Below are positions 923 to 50,380 of a DNA stretch of 64,000 nt, one piece after another. The notes below the pieces were generated by a model that was given only the letters and a program-made list of their open reading frames with translations, made no database searches and was not told the origin of the DNA. The DNA is taken from positions 93,286-157,285 of IMG/VR virus record IMGVR_UViG_3300045988_108212, one strand, 5' to 3'. Every line of letters starts with the position of its first letter. Position 1 is the stretch's first letter. This DNA comes from a virus. Made by a program: the position numbers and the translations under genes.

Positions 923-1330
923 TTATTTCTCTCCTTCTTCCTTATAGTAATATCCATACAAGCAACAATCTCCAGAATCCCATGTGTCGTAATAACAACC
1001 GTCTGAAATTGCAACTACATGATTCGCAACATTTACCAAGTAATTGCCTTGTTTATGATCTTTTGCAAAACTTTCAACTGTTGGTCGTTTAGATCCTTTT
1101 CGGTTGCTAATACCTTGATAAGCAAACCCATTATCGAATAAATATTCTTCGTAACATTTTCGCTCTGATGGCATACACTGCATATCCCTTGCGTATGGTA
1201 ACAAATCATCAAATGTTGTTAACCATTCTTTATCAAGCACTTTTGTTAATGCTCTGATCACGCAATCTGAATGATTGTCTTTTGTATCTTTATCGTTTGG
1301 TTGATAATATCTGTAAATTTTATTTGACAT
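923..1330 (-). CDS. hypothetical protein, possible papain-fold cysteine peptidase
   Basis: 135 aa. It has an early 'DCVIRAL' Cys and a late 'NHVVAISDG' His in the order expected for a Cys-His peptidase. SD GAAGGAGTGAG. The function is inferred only. Confidence 0.5.
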   Translation of the reverse strand: MSNKIYRYYQPNDKDTKDNHSDCVIRALTKVLDKEWLTTFDDLLPYARDMQCMPSERKCYEEYLFDNGFAYQGISNRKGSKRPTVESFAKDHKQGNYLVNVANHVVAISDGCYYDTWDSGDCCLYGYYYKEEGEK

Positions 1331-4636: not shown

Positions 4637-5599
4637 TTAATTTCCTAATGCAATTAATGAATTTCCACATGTAATTCTGTCTGCGTCTTCTTCTTTCGAT
4701 GGAACAAATACAATTACATCCCAACCGTCTTTTACAAGTGGTTGTTCAAATTTTTCATATACGTCAAAATCTGTTACAATCTCATATCCTTCGTCAACTG
4801 CTTCAACTGTTTCATGGATAGGAGTAATCTTTACAATGCATTTTTCCTTATCGAAATACTTGTTCATCAAATCTACGTCTAAATTACTTTTGGACGTAAC
4901 AGCAAAATTCAATGTGTACTTACGCTTCTTTGGCATTGGCAACCAATCAATAATGCCTCCGATCTCTGTTAAAGATAATGAACATCCTCGAAACATTTCA
5001 TTTCTTTGTTCTTCATTAAGAGTATTGATAGAGAACTGAAGACCAAAGCCATCTTCTCCACCATATTCGAATCCAGTTTTAACCCATTTATGTAAAAATT
5101 CTTTTAAATTATTATTTGCCTTTGGCATCATTGTAGAAATTACTGGATGATATGTGTTGAAATGTATATCACTGTCTGGATCTGCTAACATATGTGCAAT
5201 CTGTTTAGCCGAAGCAATTACATTTTGATTAAATGTAGGCTCTCCCATTCTTGCATAATGTACATTTAATCGTTCTCCATGTCTGATTCCTGATAAAGCA
5301 ATTCCAGAAGTGATCTCCATCATTAACTCTGGCAACGATGCGTTTCCTTTAAATCCAAGTTTAGGGCAATCACAGAAATTGCAATGCATCGGACAACCTT
5401 TCTGCGACGAAACAGTCACAACTAATTTTTCTCTAATATCAACTGGTTTATGTTCAACTTTTTCAATTCGTTTATCATACCCAAGAAAATCTGCCTTAAT
5501 GTTGTTTTCCTTGCCATAATCACCAACGAATAAGTATTCTAATGTTAAATCTGTATCGGAGATAATTTCTCCTGTATGTGTGTCTGTAATCTGTCTCAT
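4637..5599 (-). CDS. radical SAM enzyme, RlmN/Cfr-like
   Basis: VTVSSQKGCPMHCNFCDC (CxxxCxxC), MGEPTFN, LQFSINTLNEEQR, VKITPIHET and C-terminal RITCGNSL parallel the RlmN blocks LCVSSQVGCxxxCxFC / MGMGEPL / ISLHA / INLIPWNP / AACGQL. Confidence 0.8.
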   Translation of the reverse strand: MRQITDTHTGEIISDTDLTLEYLFVGDYGKENNIKADFLGYDKRIEKVEHKPVDIREKLVVTVSSQKGCPMHCNFCDCPKLGFKGNASLPELMMEITSGIALSGIRHGERLNVHYARMGEPTFNQNVIASAKQIAHMLADPDSDIHFNTYHPVISTMMPKANNNLKEFLHKWVKTGFEYGGEDGFGLQFSINTLNEEQRNEMFRGCSLSLTEIGGIIDWLPMPKKRKYTLNFAVTSKSNLDVDLMNKYFDKEKCIVKITPIHETVEAVDEGYEIVTDFDVYEKFEQPLVKDGWDVIVFVPSKEEDADRITCGNSLIALGN

Positions 5600-8653: not shown

Positions 8654-9958
8654 TTATTTAATTGCTACGAATTTTTCATCCTGTTTGTTGTCATTAATAT
8701 ATATTTCTTTGCCCTTAAGTTCTGGAAAATATTTCTTGGCAAGTTTCTTGAATTCATTAATATTTTTAAGACTTTCGTCATCATATGAATCAAACAACAT
8801 TTCATCTTTGATTTCCCTAAAGAACTTCGCATGAGGTAAACCTTTTCTTTCCTCTTCTCTCTTCTTATCATTCTCAAGAATCTCTTCTAATTTACATAAA
8901 TTCTCTGTCACTTCAATGCAGCTACTTGGATATTTCACATATTTGTTTGTCCAAAAATCAACTGCATCATGAGCACCTGCATTACCAAACAGGTATTTTA
9001 ATACACAAGTCTTGAAACCTTCTTCTCTGTTAAATCTGTCGAATCTGCTTGTATAAGCAACAGTTTCAGTACCACAGTTCCAAACCACCTTAACCATACC
9101 TCTGTAAAATTTAGCCTTAGTTACTGGTTTACCACCTCTTTCGAGTGGCTTACCATTACTATCTAAAACAGGTTCCCTAACTGTCATCTCTTTGTCTACA
9201 TAAATAACTTTTTTGATTTTGTCTTTTAATTTTTCTGTATTCATATCTTTCTCCTCTTCGTTTCCTGTAAGTTCACTCATGATTTCATCCAATTTTTCTG
9301 GCGCAAATGTTAAAGTTGCACTCATTTCACCATTCCAATCAATATGTGTTGGTGCATAAGGACTCAACCCACGGTCGTCATGTATCATCCACGATTTCCC
9401 TGTGGTTGAAAGCTCACCAGCCTCATTCTTTATTGGTTCTGACGTTGCAGTAATTGGTTTTTGTTGATAGTGTGACAGAGCAGACACTCTTCTTTCTGAG
9501 AGTGACGGTAGGGTTAATGTATCAACCTGTATTTTGTCGGCTGAAATCGTACCTGTCTGAATCTCAATATCTTCATTCATTGTTCCACGAATAAGCACAA
9601 CCTGTAGTTCATCTGAAGTTCGAACAACACAATTAATATACCTATATAAATCACCATCAAACCACATCTTATTATTACTATTTATTTTCGTATATATTAA
9701 ATGATGTAACCCTGTAGCTGTTGGATCAATGGCTTTATCATCTTCCCCAAATACACTACATACAGGCAAAAGTTTTTGAAAGCTCGATCCTCTACTTCTG
9801 TTATATTCGACACTTACTACCTTGAAAAGTACATTCTCAACATCGGAAAATACTTGTATATAATCTCCAATGCTCAAACGAATTTCATCATCACTATCAA
9901 GTCTCTTTCTGTGTCTGCCTTTAGTCTGCACCCAAACGCCCGTTTTATTTTCATCCAT
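8654..9958 (-). CDS. hypothetical protein (434 aa)
   Basis: Long ORF with GAGAGGAGAATTAT SD; no family recognised. Confidence 0.75.
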   Translation of the reverse strand: MDENKTGVWVQTKGRHRKRLDSDDEIRLSIGDYIQVFSDVENVLFKVVSVEYNRSRGSSFQKLLPVCSVFGEDDKAIDPTATGLHHLIYTKINSNNKMWFDGDLYRYINCVVRTSDELQVVLIRGTMNEDIEIQTGTISADKIQVDTLTLPSLSERRVSALSHYQQKPITATSEPIKNEAGELSTTGKSWMIHDDRGLSPYAPTHIDWNGEMSATLTFAPEKLDEIMSELTGNEEEKDMNTEKLKDKIKKVIYVDKEMTVREPVLDSNGKPLERGGKPVTKAKFYRGMVKVVWNCGTETVAYTSRFDRFNREEGFKTCVLKYLFGNAGAHDAVDFWTNKYVKYPSSCIEVTENLCKLEEILENDKKREEERKGLPHAKFFREIKDEMLFDSYDDESLKNINEFKKLAKKYFPELKGKEIYINDNKQDEKFVAIK

Positions 9959-10153
9959 ATAATTCTCCTCTCTAATGTATCAATTTGTTACTTTACATTT
10001 TCACGGTATTGATATTCATCGACACTCAATACCTGCGTACCCATCTCTAGTACCAAGACGGTACTGGAATTTATCTCCTTTCTAACATAATATTTACATT
10101 TTAATTTTGCACAAATGCCTGTGCGAGTCATTACATATAATAAGGAAGAAACT

Positions 10154-10804
10154 CTACCCAATTATATTCTGGATAAGCTCATAATACTTTGTCCTGCCGA
10201 CATACGACTTATGTTCTGCATCTTTTAATTCTTTCTTCAAAGTACATATATCTTTCTGATTATCCATGCAATTCTGCATCACTTCTATGTATCGAATACA
10301 ATTCTTGATCTTTCTATGCAATTCTTGTAAGGTTTTAAGATACCCAACAATCACTGCACGTTTCGCAGCATCAATCTTTTTAAACTCAATCGCATGAAGA
10401 ATATCACTTCTGGCAGAATCGGCATATGATAATGCCTGTTCTAATTCAAACTTCTTTTCTCCTAATTGATCTGAGTCATATGCTAGAAGTCCTACTATAG
10501 CTCTTTCCTCAGTCTCTATATTGTCGATCAATGTATTATCACATTCCCAATCCATAAAGCAATTTCCATTACTTTTACGCATTATTTCACTAGATTCCAT
10601 AGGTTTTCCAACTTTACCTAGCTCAATTTCTCTGGCATGAAATCCGTCTTTCATCCACGTATATTTATGCTTCAAACCTAAAATGTGCTTTGCTTGCTTA
10701 GAGGTAAATTGAGTAGCTTCAGACTTACGATTATCACGAACGTATTTATTTCTTGCATGATCTCTTTTCACATAGAACTCTCCATTCGTAATTATGTATT
10801 TCAT
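10154..10804 (-). CDS. hypothetical protein
   Basis: 216-aa ORF with CAGGAGTGATGT SD. Confidence 0.7.
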   Translation of the reverse strand: MKYIITNGEFYVKRDHARNKYVRDNRKSEATQFTSKQAKHILGLKHKYTWMKDGFHAREIELGKVGKPMESSEIMRKSNGNCFMDWECDNTLIDNIETEERAIVGLLAYDSDQLGEKKFELEQALSYADSARSDILHAIEFKKIDAAKRAVIVGYLKTLQELHRKIKNCIRYIEVMQNCMDNQKDICTLKKELKDAEHKSYVGRTKYYELIQNIIG

Positions 10805-10850
10805 ACATCACTCCTGTATTTAATTGTAGTTTTTTGGAAAAATTTTCATG

Positions 10851-10879
10851 TTGACGAACATGTTTAGAATTGTTATAAT
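10851..10879 (+). promoter_or_regulatory. near-consensus sigma-70 promoter on the strand opposite the surrounding genes
   Basis: TTGACG (10851-10856), a 17-nt spacer, then TATAAT (10874-10879). Confidence 0.55.
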
Positions 10880-10885
10880 GATTTT

Positions 10886-10981
10886 AAGGATAATAATATC
10901 CTTATCTATTAAACAATTCTAAATATCAAATTCGATTTTCTATCGTGCTGCCAACACGGTAGATTCAAAAAATCTTTTTTT
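10886..10981 (+). ncRNA. candidate ~95-nt small RNA
   Basis: It starts just after the 10851 promoter. There is an 8-bp hairpin TAAGGATA-ataa-TATCCTTA (10885-10904) and an 8-bp hairpin CTATCGTG-N7-CACGGTAG (10940-10962). A T7 run follows at 10975-10981. No ORF or SD is present. Confidence 0.35.
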
Positions 10982-10997
10982 GTTATCTATGATTTGT

Positions 10998-11363
10998 TTA
11001 GTTGAAATTTTTAGTTTGTGTGAAAGTAGAAGTTTTACCAAAGACTTCTGCTTTCTTTTTTATTGTCTGTATTTTTATTCCAACATTGTATCTCTCTTTG
11101 TATGTAAATTGCAGGCATTTGATTATGTCAAATATGTCGTCCTGCCTAATATGAGAGAACAAATTCTCATCTTGAATAAATTCGATCCAATGATATGAAA
11201 GATCTTTATCTTTGCCATAGATCTTCATCTTTCTATCATCTGCTCGAATCTTATATTCACTCAGAAACCACGATGACATTTCTGATGAGTGTAAATCAAG
11301 TACATCAATATGCATTTGATTTGATTGATTCGCTACCAATGTTTTTAATATTTGATTGTCCAT
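10998..11363 (-). CDS. hypothetical protein
   Basis: 121-aa ORF with AAGGAAGGTATATGT SD. Confidence 0.7.
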   Translation of the reverse strand: MDNQILKTLVANQSNQMHIDVLDLHSSEMSSWFLSEYKIRADDRKMKIYGKDKDLSYHWIEFIQDENLFSHIRQDDIFDIIKCLQFTYKERYNVGIKIQTIKKKAEVFGKTSTFTQTKNFN

Positions 11364-11377
11364 ACATATACCTTCCT

Positions 11378-12394
11378 TTATTCTGTCATAATTTGATGTA
11401 CACGATAATTCTTATAGTCCTCATCTTTATATAAATAACCAATAGTTTTACCAATTACAGTTTGACGATCACTAAATTGTTTCTTTTTTAATCTATATGA
11501 TATATAATAATTATAATAAAATTCAATTGCAATTTCACTAAATTGACGTGCGATTATAGATCGTGCGATTCCTTCTTTTGATTTAATATAATATAAATCT
11601 GCAATTGCCTTGATATCCATTTTAGATTTTAAATATTGTATAAAACCAGAATTAATAACATCAATGGTTGTCAATTTCTCATAAGATAAAGTGTTACCAG
11701 TTAATTCTAATTGAGACTGCACATTATTATATATCCTCTTTTGCTCTGCTTGATATTCTTCTATATTATTACATTTTTTTCGTGGTATTAATACAAAATC
11801 ATCATATATATTCGTATCTCCCATTTTCAATTTATATTCATTCAATGTCTCGATAAAATCTTTGGAGACTGGTTTCCCAAAAATTGTTAAATCATTTTGA
11901 TTAATATCTGAGAATTTTAGATTTCTTAACTCCTTTCCATTTATCCCATTATATAAACTCACAATATGAAATCTAGTATTCAATTTGGTATCGGCTGATG
12001 CATTGCACGACATCAGATTCGAAATAAACGCATTTATTTTATCTGGTGTAACATAATTAACATTAACTCTATTTGAAAAATATATATCAACTGCTAATTG
12101 CAAGTTTATAAATTTATCATTAACAAATGGATTATATTTAATGTAATTTTGTTCATATGCATAAGTATATAGTTTAACGAGCTGGTCATATCTTTTTTTA
12201 ATAGAATTCATACTTTTGGTTTTTTTACCTCTAGTATCTGATAATATAGCCTCTTGGATTGTACCTGGTGCATACGTTAACCCAGATTCATTGTCGTCCG
12301 CAATATCAGAATCTAACAACCAATTCCATGTTGGGCGACGTGATTCTGATACGTGAGAATCTATATAATTTTGTATCAATTCTTTATTATTCAT
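11378..12394 (-). CDS. integrase-like protein lacking recognisable catalytic residues
   Basis: SAM-like N-domain pattern (YAYEQNYIKYNPF) and 'GKELRNLKFSDI' in place of the usual 'GLRxSEL..L.W.DI' box. No HxxR or terminal Y box was seen. The preferred start is the ATG after TGGAGAA (the ORF track begins at 12406). Confidence 0.45.
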   Translation of the reverse strand: MNNKELIQNYIDSHVSESRRPTWNWLLDSDIADDNESGLTYAPGTIQEAILSDTRGKKTKSMNSIKKRYDQLVKLYTYAYEQNYIKYNPFVNDKFINLQLAVDIYFSNRVNVNYVTPDKINAFISNLMSCNASADTKLNTRFHIVSLYNGINGKELRNLKFSDINQNDLTIFGKPVSKDFIETLNEYKLKMGDTNIYDDFVLIPRKKCNNIEEYQAEQKRIYNNVQSQLELTGNTLSYEKLTTIDVINSGFIQYLKSKMDIKAIADLYYIKSKEGIARSIIARQFSEIAIEFYYNYYISYRLKKKQFSDRQTVIGKTIGYLYKDEDYKNYRVHQIMTE

Positions 12395-12408
12395 AATATT
12401 CTCCATTT

Positions 12409-12858
12409 CTAGGATGCCATTGCATTCATGTACGATAACATGCCGTTTTGTATTAAAATGCCATGTCCTATTTTTAACATTAAAGATAGATCAGATATTC
12501 TTCCCCAATACTCTAAAAGATTATTCTTTGGAATTGTTCTTCCTTGCTCTAAATACACCTGTGATACCATTTTTAATCCATTACTGGTATTTGGATAAAT
12601 GGTTACATGTGTCGGTATCCAGTTCCTTAATTTTTTTGTAATTGGATACACGTTAATCTCTGTGCTCGTATTATTACAAATATTATTAGAATATACGATG
12701 ACTGGTCTTTTCCCATGCAAGATATGACTACCTTCAATTTTCGGCAAATCTGCAAAATATATTCCCCAAACTTGAGGATTTTGATATTTACCATATACAT
12801 ATTCTTTTCTTTTTCTGTTATCGTTTCCTTTTCTTTCTTTGTTAGTATATCCGTTCAT
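12409..12858 (-). CDS. MazF/PemK/EndoA-family toxin-like endoribonuclease with basic N-terminal extension
   Basis: IYFADLPKIEGSHILHGKRPVIVYSN..PITKKLRNWIPTHVTI..SQVYLEQGRTIPKNNL parallels B. subtilis EndoA [47 protein letters not shown]. The start is set at the ATG after GAGGGA, because the ORF-track ATG at 12918 lies inside the promoter. Confidence 0.8.
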   Translation of the reverse strand: MNGYTNKERKGNDNRKRKEYVYGKYQNPQVWGIYFADLPKIEGSHILHGKRPVIVYSNNICNNTSTEINVYPITKKLRNWIPTHVTIYPNTSNGLKMVSQVYLEQGRTIPKNNLLEYWGRISDLSLMLKIGHGILIQNGMLSYMNAMAS

Positions 12859-12908
12859 TTTTACGTCCCTCAACTTTCCCCAGTTGTATTTTTTATTTTC
12901 ATGAATTA

Positions 12909-12946
12909 AATATACCATACTTTTTGCACCCTGTCAATAGGTGCAA
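12909..12946 (-). promoter_or_regulatory. promoter with its -35 box embedded in a 7-bp inverted repeat (operator-like); twin of 38739-38776
   Basis: The minus strand reads TTGCACC-ta-TTGACA-g-GGTGCAA-aaagtatgg-TATATT (17-nt spacer). Confidence 0.6.
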
Positions 12947-13018
12947 GAAAGAAAGTTAATTTTTGTTGTGAACAAAGAATCTCTACATTTCTTATTATAA
13001 TGCTACCATAGAACAAAA

Positions 13019-13339
13019 TCAAGATATTTTTCGAACAGATGTTCTCTTTTTGTTCGAACACTTTACTTTGTGCTTACTTGGAAGGGGGAAATACTGTCTA
13101 ACTTTATGAGGCTTATCCAGTTTCCATTTCTTTTCTTCAAAATCATAGTCACAAAAATCAAGCACTTCGTCCACACATCCATCATTATATTTGTAATCCA
13201 CAATAACAGGATATGTTTTATACCTCATGTAACGTGATGCATTATCTGGTTTTAATGGTGGAATCTCTGCTGAAATCCACATAAGATTCTGGTTTGCTTT
13301 CTTTTCTTCCTTATTTTGTCTAATCGTATTTATCTTCAT
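13019..13339 (-). CDS. hypothetical protein
   Basis: 106-aa ORF with TAGGAGAATTTTGT SD. Confidence 0.65.
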   Translation of the reverse strand: MKINTIRQNKEEKKANQNLMWISAEIPPLKPDNASRYMRYKTYPVIVDYKYNDGCVDEVLDFCDYDFEEKKWKLDKPHKVRQYFPLPSKHKVKCSNKKRTSVRKIS

Positions 13340-13350
13340 ACAAAATTCTC

Positions 13351-14097
13351 CTATAAAATCCTAATAATTTGTTCGTAAATTGCAATCGCATTATCTCCTG
13401 GAAAGTTCTGGTTCACATGCATATGTCCAAAGAACCACTTTTTATATTCAACAGATTCTTTAATCTCTTGCAAATAATCCGTCAATATATCTGTTTTATA
13501 CACTCCTAATCCTTGGTCCATTTGACATAATACAGATGCATATGGACTATGTGTAATTATATAATCCACTTGCGATCCATTCTGCTTCAGATTCATCATA
13601 CCTTCTGTCATTTCCTCCTCTGAAGGCAATTCTTCTTTCCACCAGCTCACATGATTAATCCTAAACATTTTGTCATAATCTCTGTACCATTCATTAATTC
13701 TTGGATCGTCTGGCTCTAAAATTCCATCTTGCACATCATGGGAACTGGCACCGCCAAATGTAAAGAATTTCTTTACTTGAATTTCAAACACCTGTCCACG
13801 CATAAGATGAAATACAGAGTCTTTGATCTTGTGAATCTTTCCGCCACACCATTTCTCTACAGGATATTGATATAAGCGGTCGTAATTTTCATGATTCCCA
13901 CATACAAACAATGTAGTAAATGGCTTGTTATCTAACCATTCCAGATTATATCGTTCTTCTTTTGTGTCATGCCACAGTCCAAAATCTCCGCAGATAATCA
14001 CATAATCATCTTTGGTTAACTCAACTCCCTCTGGGAAAGAACGACTGTTTAATCGAGTCATCCAATCCCCATGTGTATCTCCTGTTACAAATATCAT
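13351..14097 (-). CDS. calcineurin-like metallophosphoesterase
   Basis: Motifs GDTHGD, GDFG, GNHE and HSP/GHMH occur in canonical order. The start overlaps the upstream gene's stop (ATGA). Confidence 0.85.
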   Translation of the reverse strand: MIFVTGDTHGDWMTRLNSRSFPEGVELTKDDYVIICGDFGLWHDTKEERYNLEWLDNKPFTTLFVCGNHENYDRLYQYPVEKWCGGKIHKIKDSVFHLMRGQVFEIQVKKFFTFGGASSHDVQDGILEPDDPRINEWYRDYDKMFRINHVSWWKEELPSEEEMTEGMMNLKQNGSQVDYIITHSPYASVLCQMDQGLGVYKTDILTDYLQEIKESVEYKKWFFGHMHVNQNFPGDNAIAIYEQIIRIL

Positions 14098-46887: not shown

Positions 46888-46979
46888 GTACGGGTGGCAG
46901 AGCTGGTTTAATGCGCAGGATTGCTAATCCTGTATACGTACGAATATGCGTATCCTGGGGTCGTAGCCCAGTCCGTACG
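46888..46979 (+). tRNA. tRNA-Ser(GCU), type II
   Basis: Acceptor GTACGGG/TCCGTAC, a 3-bp D stem, and anticodon arm CAGGA-TTGCTAA-TCCTG. A 7-bp variable arm ATACGTA..TATGCGTAT is present. The T arm is CTGGG-GTCGTAG-CCCAG, with an atypical T loop. Confidence 0.7.
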
Positions 46980-46985
46980 CTAAAT

Positions 46986-47060
46986 CGCACCATCGTCTAA
47001 ATGGTTTTAGGACACATCCCTTTCACGGATGCAATACGAGTTCGACTCTCGTTGGTGTGA
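46986..47060 (+). tRNA. tRNA-Glu(UUC)
   Basis: Acceptor CGCACCA/TGGTGTG, D stem GTCT/GGAC, anticodon arm CATCC-CTTTCAC-GGATG and T arm ACGAG-TTCGACT-CTCGT. Confidence 0.75.
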
Positions 47061-47100
47061 TGTTTGTCCTACAATGTTCTTCGGACTTGTGGGCTAATAT

Positions 47101-47184
47101 CCCTGTTTATACTGCTAAGGAGACAGGCAAAACTGTAAATTTTGCGGCTTCGGTCACGAGTGGGTTCGATTCCCTCAACAGGGA
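47101..47184 (+). tRNA. tRNA-Tyr(GUA), type II
   Basis: Acceptor CCCTGTT/AACAGGG and anticodon arm CAAAA-CTGTAAA-TTTTG. The variable arm is GGC-TTCG-GTC and the T loop is TTCGATT. The D region is one nt longer than canonical. Confidence 0.6.
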
Positions 47185-47225
47185 TGATTAGGTTAGTAAC
47201 TATACGATAGATTAACCAAAAAATA

Positions 47226-47307
47226 TGCGAACACCCTGATGGTTGGTGGATATTGGAATGTATACCTCTTCTGATATTCTGATGGAGTTCATCACTTCAG
47301 TTCGCCC
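47226..47307 (+). pseudogene. degenerate tRNA-like element with 16-nt 'anticodon' loop
   Basis: A 6-bp acceptor GCGAAC/GTTCGC, a T-like arm TGGAG-TTCATCA-CTTCA and the stem GGAAT/ATTCT around GUAUACCUCUUCUGAU. The D arm is poor. Confidence 0.25.
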
Positions 47308-47398
47308 TAGAAAAGCAATACTTACACACTGTTGCTTTTTAGAAATATGTATTGTCTCGCCAGTGTGTACGTATGAGAGGCAAATACATATTCGTTAT

Positions 47399-47472
47399 TG
47401 ACATGTAGCTCAATTGGACAGAGCACAACGCTACGGACGTTGGTGTTGCAGGTTCGATTCCTGTCGTGTCAG
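47399..47472 (+). tRNA. tRNA-Arg(ACG)
   Basis: Acceptor TGACATG/CGTGTCA, D arm GCTC-AATTGGACA-GAGC, anticodon arm CAACG-CTACGGA-CGTTG and T arm GCAGG-TTCGATT-CCTGT. Confidence 0.85.
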
Positions 47473-47475
47473 TTT

Positions 47476-47559
47476 TCCTATATACCTCAGTTGGCAGAGG
47501 GTCATCACAGCAAGGATAACATTAGATGAAAGTCGCTGGTTCGAATCCAGCTGTAGGAA
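47476..47559 (+). tRNA. tRNA-like gene with canonical body but an 18-nt anticodon loop (identity undetermined)
   Basis: TCCTATA-TA-CCTC-AGTTGGCA-GAGG-G-TCATC-[ACAGCAAGGATAACATTA]-GATGA-AAGTC-GCTGG-TTCGAAT-CCAGC-TGTAGGA-A. Confidence 0.6.
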
Positions 47560-47565
47560 TTATAT

Positions 47566-47638
47566 TCTCGTATAGCTCAACTGGTAGAGCGGATGGCTGT
47601 TAACCATCATGTCGGAGGTTCAAATCCTTCTACGAGAG
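47566..47638 (+). tRNA. tRNA-Asn(GUU)
   Basis: Acceptor TCTCGTA/TACGAGA, D arm GCTC-AACTGGTA-GAGC, anticodon arm GATGG-CTGTTAA-CCATC and T arm GGAGG-TTCAAAT-CCTTC. Confidence 0.9.
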
Positions 47639-48228
47639 TTTGTATTTTAAACATAAGCAACTCGGTTATAAAACTCAATGCCATGAGTCCGAGAGATATT
47701 CTAGGCACATATGTCGAATTGGAGAGATACATTGTACGGATACGTTCTTTGTGTCTCTTTTTATGTCGGAGTGATCTGATATGGACAAGAGAGAAACTCT
47801 CAAGCAAATGGATATTGTGCAGCATTTTGGTCTGGTTAACGCACAGAACTTTTCGCTACAATAATAGACGCTCCTGTGGAGAATAATCCACTTCAATGCG
47901 TACTCTGGCAGGTACGTAAAAGGTGGAAAAGCCAAATAATGTAGTTTGATGTGAATCTGTTCAAAAGACAGTGTATAAGAAAAGTCGCTGGTATGTCGCT
48001 CAAGTCAGTTAAGGGTAAGTTCAAATTTATAAAAACATTCTAAAACTTAATTCTGAACGGTGGGTTGACATTGCATGTATTGATCATGTCATAGAACTGG
48101 TTTTTTAGACTTAGGTAAGAAGTTAGAGGTCGCTCCTCGAAGCTCAGACTTATCTACTATGTTGCAGAATAAACTGTTCCACAAATGACTGTAAGGTGAA
48201 GACCTGCTTTAAAATTAAAATACATTTA
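47639..48228 (+). ncRNA. candidate large structured non-coding RNA embedded in the tRNA array
   Basis: This 590-nt tRNA-to-tRNA gap has no credible ORF. GC is about 40-43% in sampled lines versus about 30% in flanking genes. It has many nested helices, such as CTCGG..CCGAG (47661/47689), AGAGATAC..GTGTCTCT (47723/47751), GTGGA-gaataa-TCCAC and GCGTAC-N8-GTACG (47875-47920). Confidence 0.4.
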
Positions 48229-48300
48229 AGGGGTATCGCCAAGTGGTAAGGCACAGCACTTTGACTGCTGTATTCACTGGTTCAAATCCAGTTATCCCTG
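48229..48300 (+). tRNA. tRNA-Gln(UUG)
   Basis: Acceptor AGGGGTA/TATCCCT, anticodon arm CAGCA-CTTTGAC-TGCTG and T arm ACTGG-TTCAAAT-CCAGT. Confidence 0.85.
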
Positions 48301-48301
48301 T

Positions 48302-48376
48302 CGCAGAATGGAGAAGTTTGGTTATCTCGTCAGGTTCATGCCCTGAAGATCGGTGGTTCAAATCCACCTTCTGCTA
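48302..48376 (+). tRNA. tRNA-Met or Ile2 (CAU)
   Basis: D stem GAGA/TCTC, anticodon arm TCAGG-TTCATGC-CCTGA and T arm GGTGG-TTCAAAT-CCACC. The acceptor is GCAGAA/TTCTGC with a C1xU72 mismatch. Confidence 0.75.
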
Positions 48377-48408
48377 TTTTTCTAGGTTTCATTTTATTTT
48401 TCATATAG

Positions 48409-48440
48409 TATCCTTTATTGGTAGGGACATTTATGTCCTT
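48409..48440 (+). other. 13-bp hairpin between tRNAs (possible processing signal)
   Basis: TATTGGTAGGGAC-ATTTAT-GTCCTTACCAATA, with no T-run. Confidence 0.6.
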
Positions 48441-48447
48441 ACCAATA

Positions 48448-48523
48448 TTGCACAGTGGAAAAGTTGGTAAATTCGCTCGTTCCATTTGGTTCTGGAGACG
48501 TAGGTTCAAATCCTACCTGTGCA
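48448..48523 (+). tRNA. tRNA-like gene with irregular anticodon arm (best fold gives 8-nt loop UUUGGUUC; UGG?)
   Basis: Perfect acceptor TGCACAG/CTGTGCA and T arm GTAGG-TTCAAAT-CCTAC, with a normal 76-nt length. The only 5-bp anticodon stem (TTCCA/TGGAG) encloses 8 nt and leaves an abnormal junction. Confidence 0.5.
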
Positions 48524-48622
48524 ATCAAAGAGCTGTTTGATTGGCAGTTCTTTTTCAACAAAGATTTTTTCTCATTGTTAGCATATAGTGGATGGATATT
48601 AATTCATCTACTACTCCTTTCT

Positions 48623-48692
48623 GGCTTGGTAGTTCATTGGTAGAACGCAATACTTTTAATATTGTGAAGCGGTTCAAATCCGTTCCAAGCCC
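48623..48692 (+). tRNA. tRNA-Lys(UUU)
   Basis: Acceptor GGCTTGG/CCAAGCC, D arm GTTC-ATTGGTA-GAAC, anticodon arm CAATA-CTTTTAA-TATTG and T arm AGCGG-TTCAAAT-CCGTT. The variable loop is short. Confidence 0.8.
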
Positions 48693-48940: not shown

Positions 48941-48949
48941 GTGTTCTCT

Positions 48950-50380
48950 ATGAAGAAAAAACAAAAGAATATCAGAGTATCATTTGTGGACGAACCTGCT
49001 GCTATGGATGTTACTGGTTCTATGGTTTATGTAAAAACAGATACTCACAACATTTTGATTGATGCTGGCTTACATCAGTCAAATAGTAAATACGATGATT
49101 TTCTTGTAAATAAGAGAAGATTCAAAGAATTTAAGCCAAAAGACATTGATTATATCTTTATTTCCCATCTCCATGCGGATCACGTATTTTTAAGCCCAAG
49201 ACTATATAAAGAGGGATGTTCTGCAAAAATGATTGTTGCACAAGACAATTATCGAATTATGCATCGAATGGCTGAAGATTCTGCTTATATTATTGAAAGA
49301 GATATAGAATTAATTAACAATCAACATGGGAAGAATTATGACCCATTGTATACTATTGAAGATGTAGAACGTACAATGAATTATGTTTCTGAATATCCTG
49401 TGATGGAAAAGATTGTTATTGATGATAATTTATCATTTATGCTTATTCCAAACGGACATTTGCTTGGTAGTGTGCAAATTTTATTGTATCTCAAACAGAA
49501 CAATGTTGAAAAGACTTTGTTGTTTACAGGAGATATTGGAAATTCTAAAGTACATAATTATTACGTTAATAAGTTTACTCCTGTTAATCATGCAGATTTA
49601 GTCATTGGAGAATCAACTTATGGAGATCGCCCAGATTTAAAAACTGGACAAAAAGAAAGAAATAATGATATCGAAAAGTTATTTTCTATTATCGCACAAC
49701 AGGTATGCGAAATGCATGGACAGGTAATTATACCAACTTTCGCAAATCACAGACTCCAATTTCTTACAACAATGATTTATCAGGTCATGAAAGATTATGA
49801 TTTTCCTTATAAAGTATACATTGATACACCGTTAGGGATTGATATTTTTAATGAATATCGCAAAATCTTATCGGGAGATGAACTAGAATTGTTTGATAAG
49901 GTCTTAAATTGGGATAACTTAGTGTTTGTGCGTGATGCAGAATCCAGTAAAGCACTGGTACATAGTAATGAACCATGTGTAATATTATCTACATCTGGGA
50001 TGTGTAATAATGGTAGAATTAGACACCATTTGAAAAAAGCAGTTTCAAATCCTAACGCTACTGTTCTATTTGTAGGATTCAGTACGCCAGGAAGTTTAGC
50101 TGCATTACTTAAAGACAAAAATGTTAAATCTATCTCTATAGATAATAAACAATATACTTGTAGATGTGCAAGTTTCTCACTCAAATCTCTTAGTGGACAT
50201 GCTCCATTCTGCCAACTTCTCGATTACTACTCTTCTATTAACACAAATCGAATTGTATTACATCATGGATCAGAAAAAGCAAAGTTAACATTAAAAGAGA
50301 AATTAACTTCTGAACTTGAAAAGAAATGCAAAAGTACACGAGTTATTATTGCAAATTCAAGTTTGAAAATTTCATTATAG
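48950..50380 (+). CDS. MBL-fold beta-CASP ribonuclease (RNase J / CPSF73-like)
   Basis: ILIDAG, HLHADH, NGHLLGS and TGDIG are MBL motifs 1-4. ESTYG, LSGHA and LHHGSE are beta-CASP motifs A-C. Confidence 0.8.
   Translation: MKKKQKNIRVSFVDEPAAMDVTGSMVYVKTDTHNILIDAGLHQSNSKYDDFLVNKRRFKEFKPKDIDYIFISHLHADHVFLSPRLYKEGCSAKMIVAQDNYRIMHRMAEDSAYIIERDIELINNQHGKNYDPLYTIEDVERTMNYVSEYPVMEKIVIDDNLSFMLIPNGHLLGSVQILLYLKQNNVEKTLLFTGDIGNSKVHNYYVNKFTPVNHADLVIGESTYGDRPDLKTGQKERNNDIEKLFSIIAQQVCEMHGQVIIPTFANHRLQFLTTMIYQVMKDYDFPYKVYIDTPLGIDIFNEYRKILSGDELELFDKVLNWDNLVFVRDAESSKALVHSNEPCVILSTSGMCNNGRIRHHLKKAVSNPNATVLFVGFSTPGSLAALLKDKNVKSISIDNKQYTCRCASFSLKSLSGHAPFCQLLDYYSSINTNRIVLHHGSEKAKLTLKEKLTSELEKKCKSTRVIIANSSLKISL

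Follow-up and report, generated by a model that had tools for sequence, protein, structure and literature searches.

A tRNA-shaped gene with an enlarged anticodon loop in the tRNA island of a clade of human-gut phages

Can a phage keep a transfer RNA (tRNA) gene for something other than decoding? The question is raised by a 64,000-nucleotide (nt) stretch of an uncultured human-gut phage, positions 93,286 to 157,285 of the IMG/VR record IMGVR_UViG_3300045988_108212 (the whole stretch is called the window and its own coordinates are used below). An initial annotation, made from the sequence alone, had singled out three odd tRNA-like genes in the tRNA island of the window (46888–48692, plus strand): E1 (47476–47559), E2 (48449–48524) and E3 (47227–47305). 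The description of E1 was confirmed, but those of E2 and E3 need correction. E1 is a real, unusual and narrowly distributed feature. With moderate confidence, we regard it as a non-decoding tRNA mimic: a gene of tRNA origin that no longer serves decoding and has been retained as a structured RNA.

E1 is spaced by 3 nt from the upstream tRNA-Arg and by 6 nt from the downstream tRNA-Asn and, like these neighbours, has no encoded CCA. Its acceptor UCCUAUA/UGUAGGA, which includes one U.G pair, is followed by a discriminator A at 47559. The D arm has the stem CCUC/GAGG and the loop AGUUGGCA. A single linker nucleotide precedes the anticodon stem UCAUC/GAUGA (47502–47506/47525–47529), which closes a loop of 18 nt, ACAGCAAGGAUAACAUUA (47507–47524); the variable loop is AAGUC and the T arm is GCUGG-UUCGAAU-CCAGC. 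Every detail of the body and loop noted earlier matches the sequence. All 21 pairs of the cloverleaf form, with a 2-nt junction at positions 8–9, 1 nt at position 26 and a 5-nt variable loop, and the minimum-energy structure given by RNAfold is exactly this cloverleaf with its 18-nt loop. E1 thus shares with the canonical tRNA (RF00005) the 7-base-pair (bp) acceptor, the 4-bp D stem with a GG-containing loop, the 5-bp anticodon stem, the 5-nt variable loop, the 5-bp T stem with its UUCGAAU loop and the spacing within the array. It differs by a loop of 16–18 nt, depending on the variant, instead of 7 nt, and by the lack of a U33/R37 frame. The Rfam tRNA model does not match E1 at its gathering score (29 bits) or at E ≤ 10. 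YrlA (Y-RNA-like, RF02553) is likewise a tRNA-like module of bacteria and phages, but its anticodon side is replaced by a Ro-binding stem and its topology is another one; it gives 25.1 and 17.5 bits against a gathering score of 69, through the T arm and a neighbouring gene only. An anticodon loop of 7 nt with U33 and a purine at position 37 is absent from all E1 variants. The earlier claim that no U33-NNN-R37 reading exists holds within a closed 7-nt loop, although a U-AAC-A string is present. Since no such loop can form, E1 would be unable to pair with a codon on the ribosome.

Relatives were collected as 44 IMG/VR loci through the neighbouring beta-CASP protein (contigs of ~150–170 kb, 90–98% amino-acid identity), and pattern scans that allowed any loop of 4–30 nt in IMG/VR, JGI/ENA metagenomes and GTDB genomes supplied further ones. 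The E1 alignment holds 13 distinct variants drawn from about 75 loci and the E3 alignment 16 variants, while presence and slot occupancy of E1, E2 and E3 were counted in 37 full loci. Across the 13 variants 99.6% of the pair cells of the E1 cloverleaf are paired, versus 33–51% in slid controls. Compensatory double changes are found at acceptor pairs 6:67 (U.G, C-G, U-A) and 7:66 (A-U, G-C) and at T-stem pair 61:75 (C-G, U-A), a level of covariation that was reached by none of 500 shuffles. The anticodon stem is unchanged in all 13 variants, even between alleles that are 79% identical overall; the adjacent spacers of the same genome pairs are 42–63% identical (of the global alignment for per-element identity, which changes in gene order confounded, only the spacer values were used). 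The UUCGAAU T loop and the D-loop GG expected for elbow contacts (UUCRANY, GG) are kept in 11 of the 13 variants. In the other two, from contigs L018 and L036, which form a single lineage, a UGCAAUU T loop goes together with a D-loop AG, which may be a joint change of the elbow. Judged from these alignments, the acceptor, D, anticodon-stem and T helices of E1 are shown to be maintained by selection. The earlier argument that a preserved scaffold implies function therefore gains support from the compensatory pairs and the nearly complete pairing.

The loop is A-rich with conserved ends (ACA...CAUUA) and a variable middle. Most variants have a loop of 18 nt, L018 one of 17 nt and L036 one of 16 nt, and the deletion of the loop in close relatives, which would have marked E1 as decaying, was seen in no copy found. 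A copy with a 7-nt loop was found in none of the IMG/VR, JGI/ENA metagenome or GTDB genome scans. A covariance model built from E1 (R1) scores 111.9 bits with the window copy and 94–112 bits with E1 copies; it also recognizes ordinary tRNAs at 21–45 bits (E down to 3e-8; best tRNA-Asn, 45.3 bits), which argues that E1 is a genuine tRNA homologue and not a chance resemblance. No close canonical paralogue of its body was found among all tRNAs of the clade, the best being again a weak match to tRNA-Asn. Some candidate partners or motifs of the loop were considered and dropped at chance level: pairing with the E3 loop, pairing of an Asn codon in the loop with the neighbouring tRNA-Asn, and a Shine-Dalgarno-like AAGG, which is lost in several variants. 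A search of the window for targets complementary to the loop gave one site with three mismatches, close to chance.

E1 is restricted to one clade of ~160-kb human-gut phages. All metagenome matches of its pattern come from the human gut, and outside the clade only chance matches were obtained, in coding DNA or in Photorhabdus. Within the clade 36 of the 37 full loci have it, even though its order with respect to tRNA-Asn differs and the large ROOL RNA is present or absent. It moves as a module: the order is Arg-E1-Asn-ROOL in the window, Arg-Asn-E1-ROOL in L018 and L036, Arg-Asn-E1-Gln in L002 and L007, and Arg-E1-Gln in L004.

The tight position of E1 in the array and the lack of an encoded CCA suggest that it probably matures like the neighbouring tRNAs. 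It would be transcribed with the array and cut out by ribonuclease (RNase) P and RNase Z, and a host enzyme would then probably add CCA to yield a stable L-shaped RNA. Most plausibly, this RNA would compete for a factor that recognizes the tRNA body together with the anticodon arm. By analogy, the favoured target would be a host defence nuclease that cleaves tRNAs or an enzyme that modifies the anticodon loop, for which E1 would act as a decoy or sacrificial substrate. This proposal is preferred because counter-defence by phage tRNAs is documented (PMC10264068, PMC11464382, PMC11555353) and the recruitment of a pseudo-tRNA is known (PMC3399842). Phage tRNAs counter tRNA-targeting defences, with anticodon-loop variants set against anticodon nucleases (PMC10264068); the tRNA-Lys of phage T5 counters PARIS (PMC11464382) and a tRNA-Tyr counters the retron PtuAB (PMC11555353). 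Like E1, these tRNAs are encoded by phages within tRNA islands, and changes in their anticodon loops have been proposed to affect the encounter with host nucleases. They differ in that they decode, have 7-nt loops and replace the cleaved host tRNAs; as E1 cannot decode, it could act only as a decoy or competitor against such defences. A non-decoding phage tRNA decoy of this kind was not described in the literature searched. The pseudo-tRNA tRNA-Other of Bacillus cereus is tRNA-derived, works outside translation and was apparently recruited to another, non-translational role, as is proposed for E1 (PMC3399842). However, tRNA-Other belongs to the chromosome, where it neighbours a genomic island and forms part of longer transcripts, and it has no sequence relation to E1. 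E1 belongs to a phage, is packed into a dense tRNA array and has a complete cloverleaf.

Several observations weigh against this reading. The decoy step itself is purely an inference. The E1 pattern scans of viral contigs, metagenomes and genomes found no host, and a candidate nuclease cannot be named. Eight related contigs lack E1, which is thus dispensable, and the one of them examined (L024) has a tRNA-Trp in its place. Diversity is low: 11 of the 13 variants share 91.7% identity or more, and few independent events therefore lie behind the three compensatory pairs. The loop is unconserved in its middle, which could equally reflect free drift or a platform for binding. A scan of 30 window open reading frames (ORFs) gave no tRNA-repair gene and no ligase gene.

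The main rival, which we consider possible but rather improbable, takes some of these same facts to mean that E1 is a dead tRNA gene whose loop was wrecked by an insertion. Its body would persist as a site (tRNA punctuation) at which RNase P and RNase Z cut to release neighbours such as ROOL, or would simply hitch-hike, and the RNA itself would be inert. The drift of the loop middle in sequence and length and the eight contigs without E1 are in line with it, and mobile elements are demonstrably breaking neighbouring tRNA genes of the island (see below). Furthermore, E1 directly abuts the 5′ end of ROOL in L018, L022 and L036, so that processing at the 3′ side of E1 would there fix where ROOL begins. 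This organization is not the general one: in the window and in many relatives E1 is flanked by an ordinary tRNA on either side, or its locus has no ROOL, and extra punctuation is unneeded there. Cleavage by RNase P and RNase Z requires no anticodon arm, but E1 has an invariant anticodon stem and has also kept its D stem. The retention of E1 in 36 of 37 loci also differs from that of the E2 allele, found in only 15 of 37 E2 slots.

E3 (plus strand) had been described as a weak element with a 16-nt loop. Comparison of its 16 variants replaces this picture by a four-way junction with a 9-bp arm, a 14-nt loop in the window and strong pairing support. Its acceptor-like helix has 6 bp (47227–47232/47300–47305) and is followed by a small hairpin ACC-CUGAU-GGU, which varies as [A/G]CC-CUGAU-GG[U/C] with an A-U/G-C exchange. 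The 9-bp arm GGAUAUUGG/CUGAUAUUC (47248–47256/47271–47279) shows U.G/C-G and G.U/A-U alternation and closes the loop AAUGUAUACCUCUU (47257–47270; 14–15 nt across the variants), in which UACCUCU is conserved and GUAUACCUCU is the best-conserved part. The T-like arm is UGGAG-UUCAUCA-CUUCA, with the loop UUCAUCA, and a terminator-like hairpin follows at ~47310–47345. Pairing is kept in 97% of cells, with 15 extra pair types, versus 31–49% in slid controls, so that the inference of function from a preserved scaffold holds here too. E3 has neither the D-loop GG nor A58; it is therefore tRNA-shaped without being a tRNA, and no Rfam family matches it. It is present in all 37 full loci and also in contigs without E1. 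The alignment shows E3 to be a structured RNA under selection for its helices, and it is probably a separate functional RNA of tRNA shape that is universally retained.

A further gene with an expanded loop stands alone at 1741–1878 on the minus strand. Its body is canonical, its anticodon stem GGCAA/UUGCC surrounds an AT-rich loop of 74 nt, and promoter-like and terminator-like sequences of its own flank it. It matches the Rfam tRNA model with 46.4 bits, is seen by ARAGORN in intron mode, has a fold z-score of −3.0 and is conserved in about 50 related contigs. Only one contig, L167, was found to lack the 74-nt insert. HEARO is the guide RNA of IscB; in L167 a HEARO RNA (98.9 bits, 1018–1262, minus strand) and an IscB-like ORF with RRXRR and HNH domains (from ~938 downward) directly follow the 5′ half of the tRNA at the anticodon loop. 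If the guide comes from the stretch that immediately precedes the HEARO scaffold, this tRNA 5′ half would be the guide. The recurrence of ACCUC in the E3 loop and in the 74-nt insert had been pointed out previously. The string is indeed in both places, but a shared 5-mer is obtained in 76% of shuffles, which puts the shared word at chance level; for CCUC the figure is 0.6%, for a motif chosen post hoc. ACCUC[U/C] in the E3 loop (47257–47270) and in the insert resembles the anti-Shine-Dalgarno end of 16S ribosomal RNA. Within the E3 loop nothing is better conserved than this string, which 15 of the 16 variants keep intact.

A broader proposal unites E1, E3, the 1741–1878 gene and perhaps E2 into one set of tRNA-scaffold RNAs, in which the body would be a chassis for processing, stability and recognition and the enlarged loop the working part. 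E1 would then be a non-cleavable or sacrificial decoy that neutralizes a host anticodon-loop nuclease or defence system. We put this forward tentatively and think it unlikely to hold as a whole.

E2 (plus strand) tells another story. Its normal length, acceptor and T arm are as first described, and it matches the Rfam tRNA model with 44.5 bits, a score reached only by skipping the anticodon arm. The anticodon and variable region (48476–48499) is disordered and has 24 nt versus 22 nt in a canonical tRNA-Pro(UGG) that occupies the same slot in L004, L018, L021, L036 and L037 (loop UUUGGGU); in E2 the ancestral loop UUUGGUU is still recognizable. The two alleles are ~68% identical and share the flanking hairpin, the T arm, the 3′ acceptor and the terminator-like hairpin that follows, and their D stems differ by a compensatory change (GCG/CGC to GAA/UUC). 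The 5-bp stem UUCCA/UGGAG with its 8-nt loop UUUGGUUC, taken in the initial annotation as the hallmark of a +1 frameshift suppressor, does exist. It is 4 nt out of register, however: a linker of 5 nt separates it from the D stem, and 2 nt are left for the variable region. In a sister E2 allele the stem is broken, as UGGAG is changed to GUGAG and two of the five pairs are lost. The sole register common to both E2 alleles is CUC/GAG at 27–29/41–43, with a loop of 12–16 nt. The E2 slot of the 37 loci holds E2 in 15 cases, a 28-nt 3′ fragment in 14, tRNA-Pro(UGG) in five and a Pro scaffold with UUG in two, and is deleted in one. In the fragment alleles the 5′ two-thirds of the tRNA have given way to an HNH_3/NUMOD4 (I-HmuI-like) homing-endonuclease ORF (L002, at 4989–5549; L003, L005, L008, L011, L014–L016, L019, L023, L030, L032, L035 and L039). 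The frameshift-suppressor role is thus unsupported, since the stem is out of register and not conserved, canonical tRNA-Pro(UGG) is found in the same slot of sister phages and the slot is often truncated or deleted. The sufA6/sufB2 tRNA-Pro, which are +1 frameshift suppressors with 8-nt loops, resemble E2 in its derivation from tRNA-Pro(UGG) and in that an 8-nt loop can be drawn; the register of the stem, its loss in the sister allele and the frequent loss of the gene set E2 apart from them. Quadruplet-decoding tRNAs are also on record (PMC9094744). On the sequences compared, E2 is best described as a dispensable, degenerating allele of tRNA-Pro(UGG). The earlier interpretation is supported in part: for the function of preserved scaffolds (E1, E3), but not for the frameshift suppressor or the ACCUC link.

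Other observations were made at this slot. The two UUG alleles (L006, 5430–5507; L024, 5431–5508) are Pro scaffolds with the loop UUUUGGU, in which the anticodon has apparently switched from UGG to UUG (Gln). In L025 (5511–5588) a deletion between the two GGUUCAAAUCC T loops has joined tRNA-Met to the 3′ end of the gene in the E2 slot, which indicates recombination between tRNA genes within the island. E2 and its terminator (48445–48559, plus strand) give a weak match to the Streptococcus small RNA SpF41 (32.2 bits versus a gathering score of 52), an Rfam family that may itself be a degenerate tRNA plus terminator.

The aberrant genes arise in a tRNA island that is demonstrably being invaded by homing endonuclease and IscB elements. 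The odd anticodon arms might be selected as DNA: they would be alleles that escape homing endonucleases or RNA-guided IscB nucleases aimed at the tRNA genes of co-infecting relatives, and the RNA product would be irrelevant. The endonuclease ORF in the E2 slot of 14 of 37 relatives, with an insertion junction that retains the GAUC of the Pro-type variable loop, speaks for it, as does the arrangement of HEARO and the IscB-like ORF after the tRNA 5′ half in L167. E2 and the Pro allele, moreover, differ exactly in the D, anticodon and variable regions, their T arm and 3′ acceptor being identical. An endonuclease-occupied E1 allele, on the other hand, was seen in no locus, and the compensatory changes in the RNA helices of E1 and E3 are left unexplained. 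We regard escape at the DNA level as a rather unlikely account of E1; it may explain the origin of the alleles, especially of E2, rather than their maintenance.

It is highly unlikely that E1 still takes part in translation, either after removal of the ~11 extra nt as a short intron (or by cutting and religation) or through unusual decoding by the large loop (recoding, quadruplets). The conserved loop ends would fit such a role, and a beta-CASP RNase gene lies 1.4 kb downstream, as noted before and confirmed with Pfam (48941–50380, plus strand), in a synteny that recurs in one distant relative; three more distant homologues have no tRNA island nearby. When contiguous deletions that bring the loop to 7 nt were enumerated by hand, U33 was never obtained, all splits giving A33 or C33. 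The extra sequence is far below the size of a group I intron, Rfam detects none (Intron_gpI), and no pairing within the loop, including a bulge-helix-bulge, was found. RNA ligase, kinase-phosphatase and CCA enzymes were absent from Pfam and PHROGs scans of more than 30 window ORFs, and the ARAGORN "anticodon" shifts among CAG, AAG and CGG between variants. As for the ARAGORN call of a class II tRNA-Leu(CAG) with a long variable arm, made in the window and in most relatives, it is already contradicted and hardly credible: its drawing includes an A.G mismatch within the anticodon stem, gives the variable arm 3 bp and demands A33 and C37, its anticodon stem is paired in 71% of cells with one pair that never forms, no call is made in L018 and L036, its "anticodon" is as inconstant as just described, and the competing UCAUC/GAUGA stem is perfect in 13 of 13 variants with canonical 1-nt and 5-nt junctions, so that the program fold failed where it might have superseded the hand-drawn one.

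The island that surrounds these genes is otherwise made of ordinary tRNAs and one large RNA, all encoded on the plus strand. ARAGORN lists ten genes, eight of which are confirmed as tRNA by Rfam. Both programs identify tRNA-Ser(GCU) (46888–46979), tRNA-Glu(UUC) (46986–47060), tRNA-Arg(ACG) (47399–47472), tRNA-Asn(GUU) (47566–47638), tRNA-Gln(UUG) (48229–48300), tRNA-Met(CAU) (48302–48376) and tRNA-Lys(UUU) (48623–48692). The tRNA-Tyr(GUA) (47100–47185) is an ARAGORN call that the Rfam tRNA model misses at its gathering score, the sole match being tRNA-Sec at 24 bits; 81–85%-identical alleles of this gene in relatives reach 35–37 bits, and the window copy is thus a marginal member of the island. 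A gene at ~5609–5684 of L006, L024 and L036 scores 39.7 bits with the Rfam tRNA model and has no ARAGORN call; with its Lys-like loop (CUUUUAA) and atypical body, it is possibly another non-standard tRNA. ARAGORN reported no tmRNA in the window, and a simple scan of the window for promoters and terminators was uninformative.

The ROOL RNA (RF03087, 47637–48225), unseen in the initial annotation, covers the full model (1–574) with 308.8 bits (E 4e-70; gathering score 99.1). It exactly fills the space between tRNA-Asn and tRNA-Gln, flush with both, and tRNA processing would therefore determine where it begins and ends. Among ten relatives scanned with Rfam it was found in five (L006, L018, L022, L024, L036) and not found in the other five (L002, L004, L007, L015, L037). 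The tRNA cluster of phage T4 also encodes small stable RNAs of unknown function, species 1 and 2 (rnaC/rnaD), which are likewise non-tRNA structured RNAs encoded and processed together with phage tRNAs. ROOL and GOLLD RNAs are known neighbours of phage tRNA islands (PMC12286853).

The protein encoded downstream of the island has a metallo-beta-lactamase-fold RNase architecture (Pfam Beta-Casp, 6e-25; Lactamase_B; RMMBL, 2e-7). Its closest solved structure is the Thermus thermophilus RNase TTHA0252 (E 5e-39), and its nearest GenBank records are unannotated faecal contigs with about 32% identity. The gene is taken as context only. In one of these distant relatives (L251, MT835469.1, region 9945–13440), which encodes a beta-CASP protein 32% identical to the one of the window, a tRNA island with Met, GOLLD (RF02032, 172.6 bits), Arg and Ser lies directly upstream of the gene. 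GOLLD there stands in for ROOL, one ornate RNA for another in the same synteny. The distant homologues without a nearby island are L252–L254. A comparison of the array with GenBank phages gave no near match, the distant matches being confined to ordinary tRNAs.

Current views give phage tRNA islands a part in the struggle with host defences that cleave tRNAs, and in every case of counter-defence documented so far the agents are working tRNAs. A tRNA body kept by selection, with a loop inflated beyond decoding, would point to mimicry rather than replacement. If this is true, E1 would be the first natural anti-defence RNA made by inflating the anticodon loop of a tRNA, and genes of its type would show in compact natural form the tRNA-scaffold principle on which RNA engineering draws. 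On the practical side, gene finders call E1 a tRNA-Leu(CAG), a tRNA-Leu(AAG) or a tRNA-Pro(CGG) depending on single mutations in the loop, a mislabelling that distorts censuses of phage tRNAs and analyses of codon usage. Finally, the gain and loss of ROOL, the invasion by homing-endonuclease and IscB elements and an anticodon switch are all found in one population, which makes this clade of gut phages a good system in which to follow the evolution of tRNA islands.

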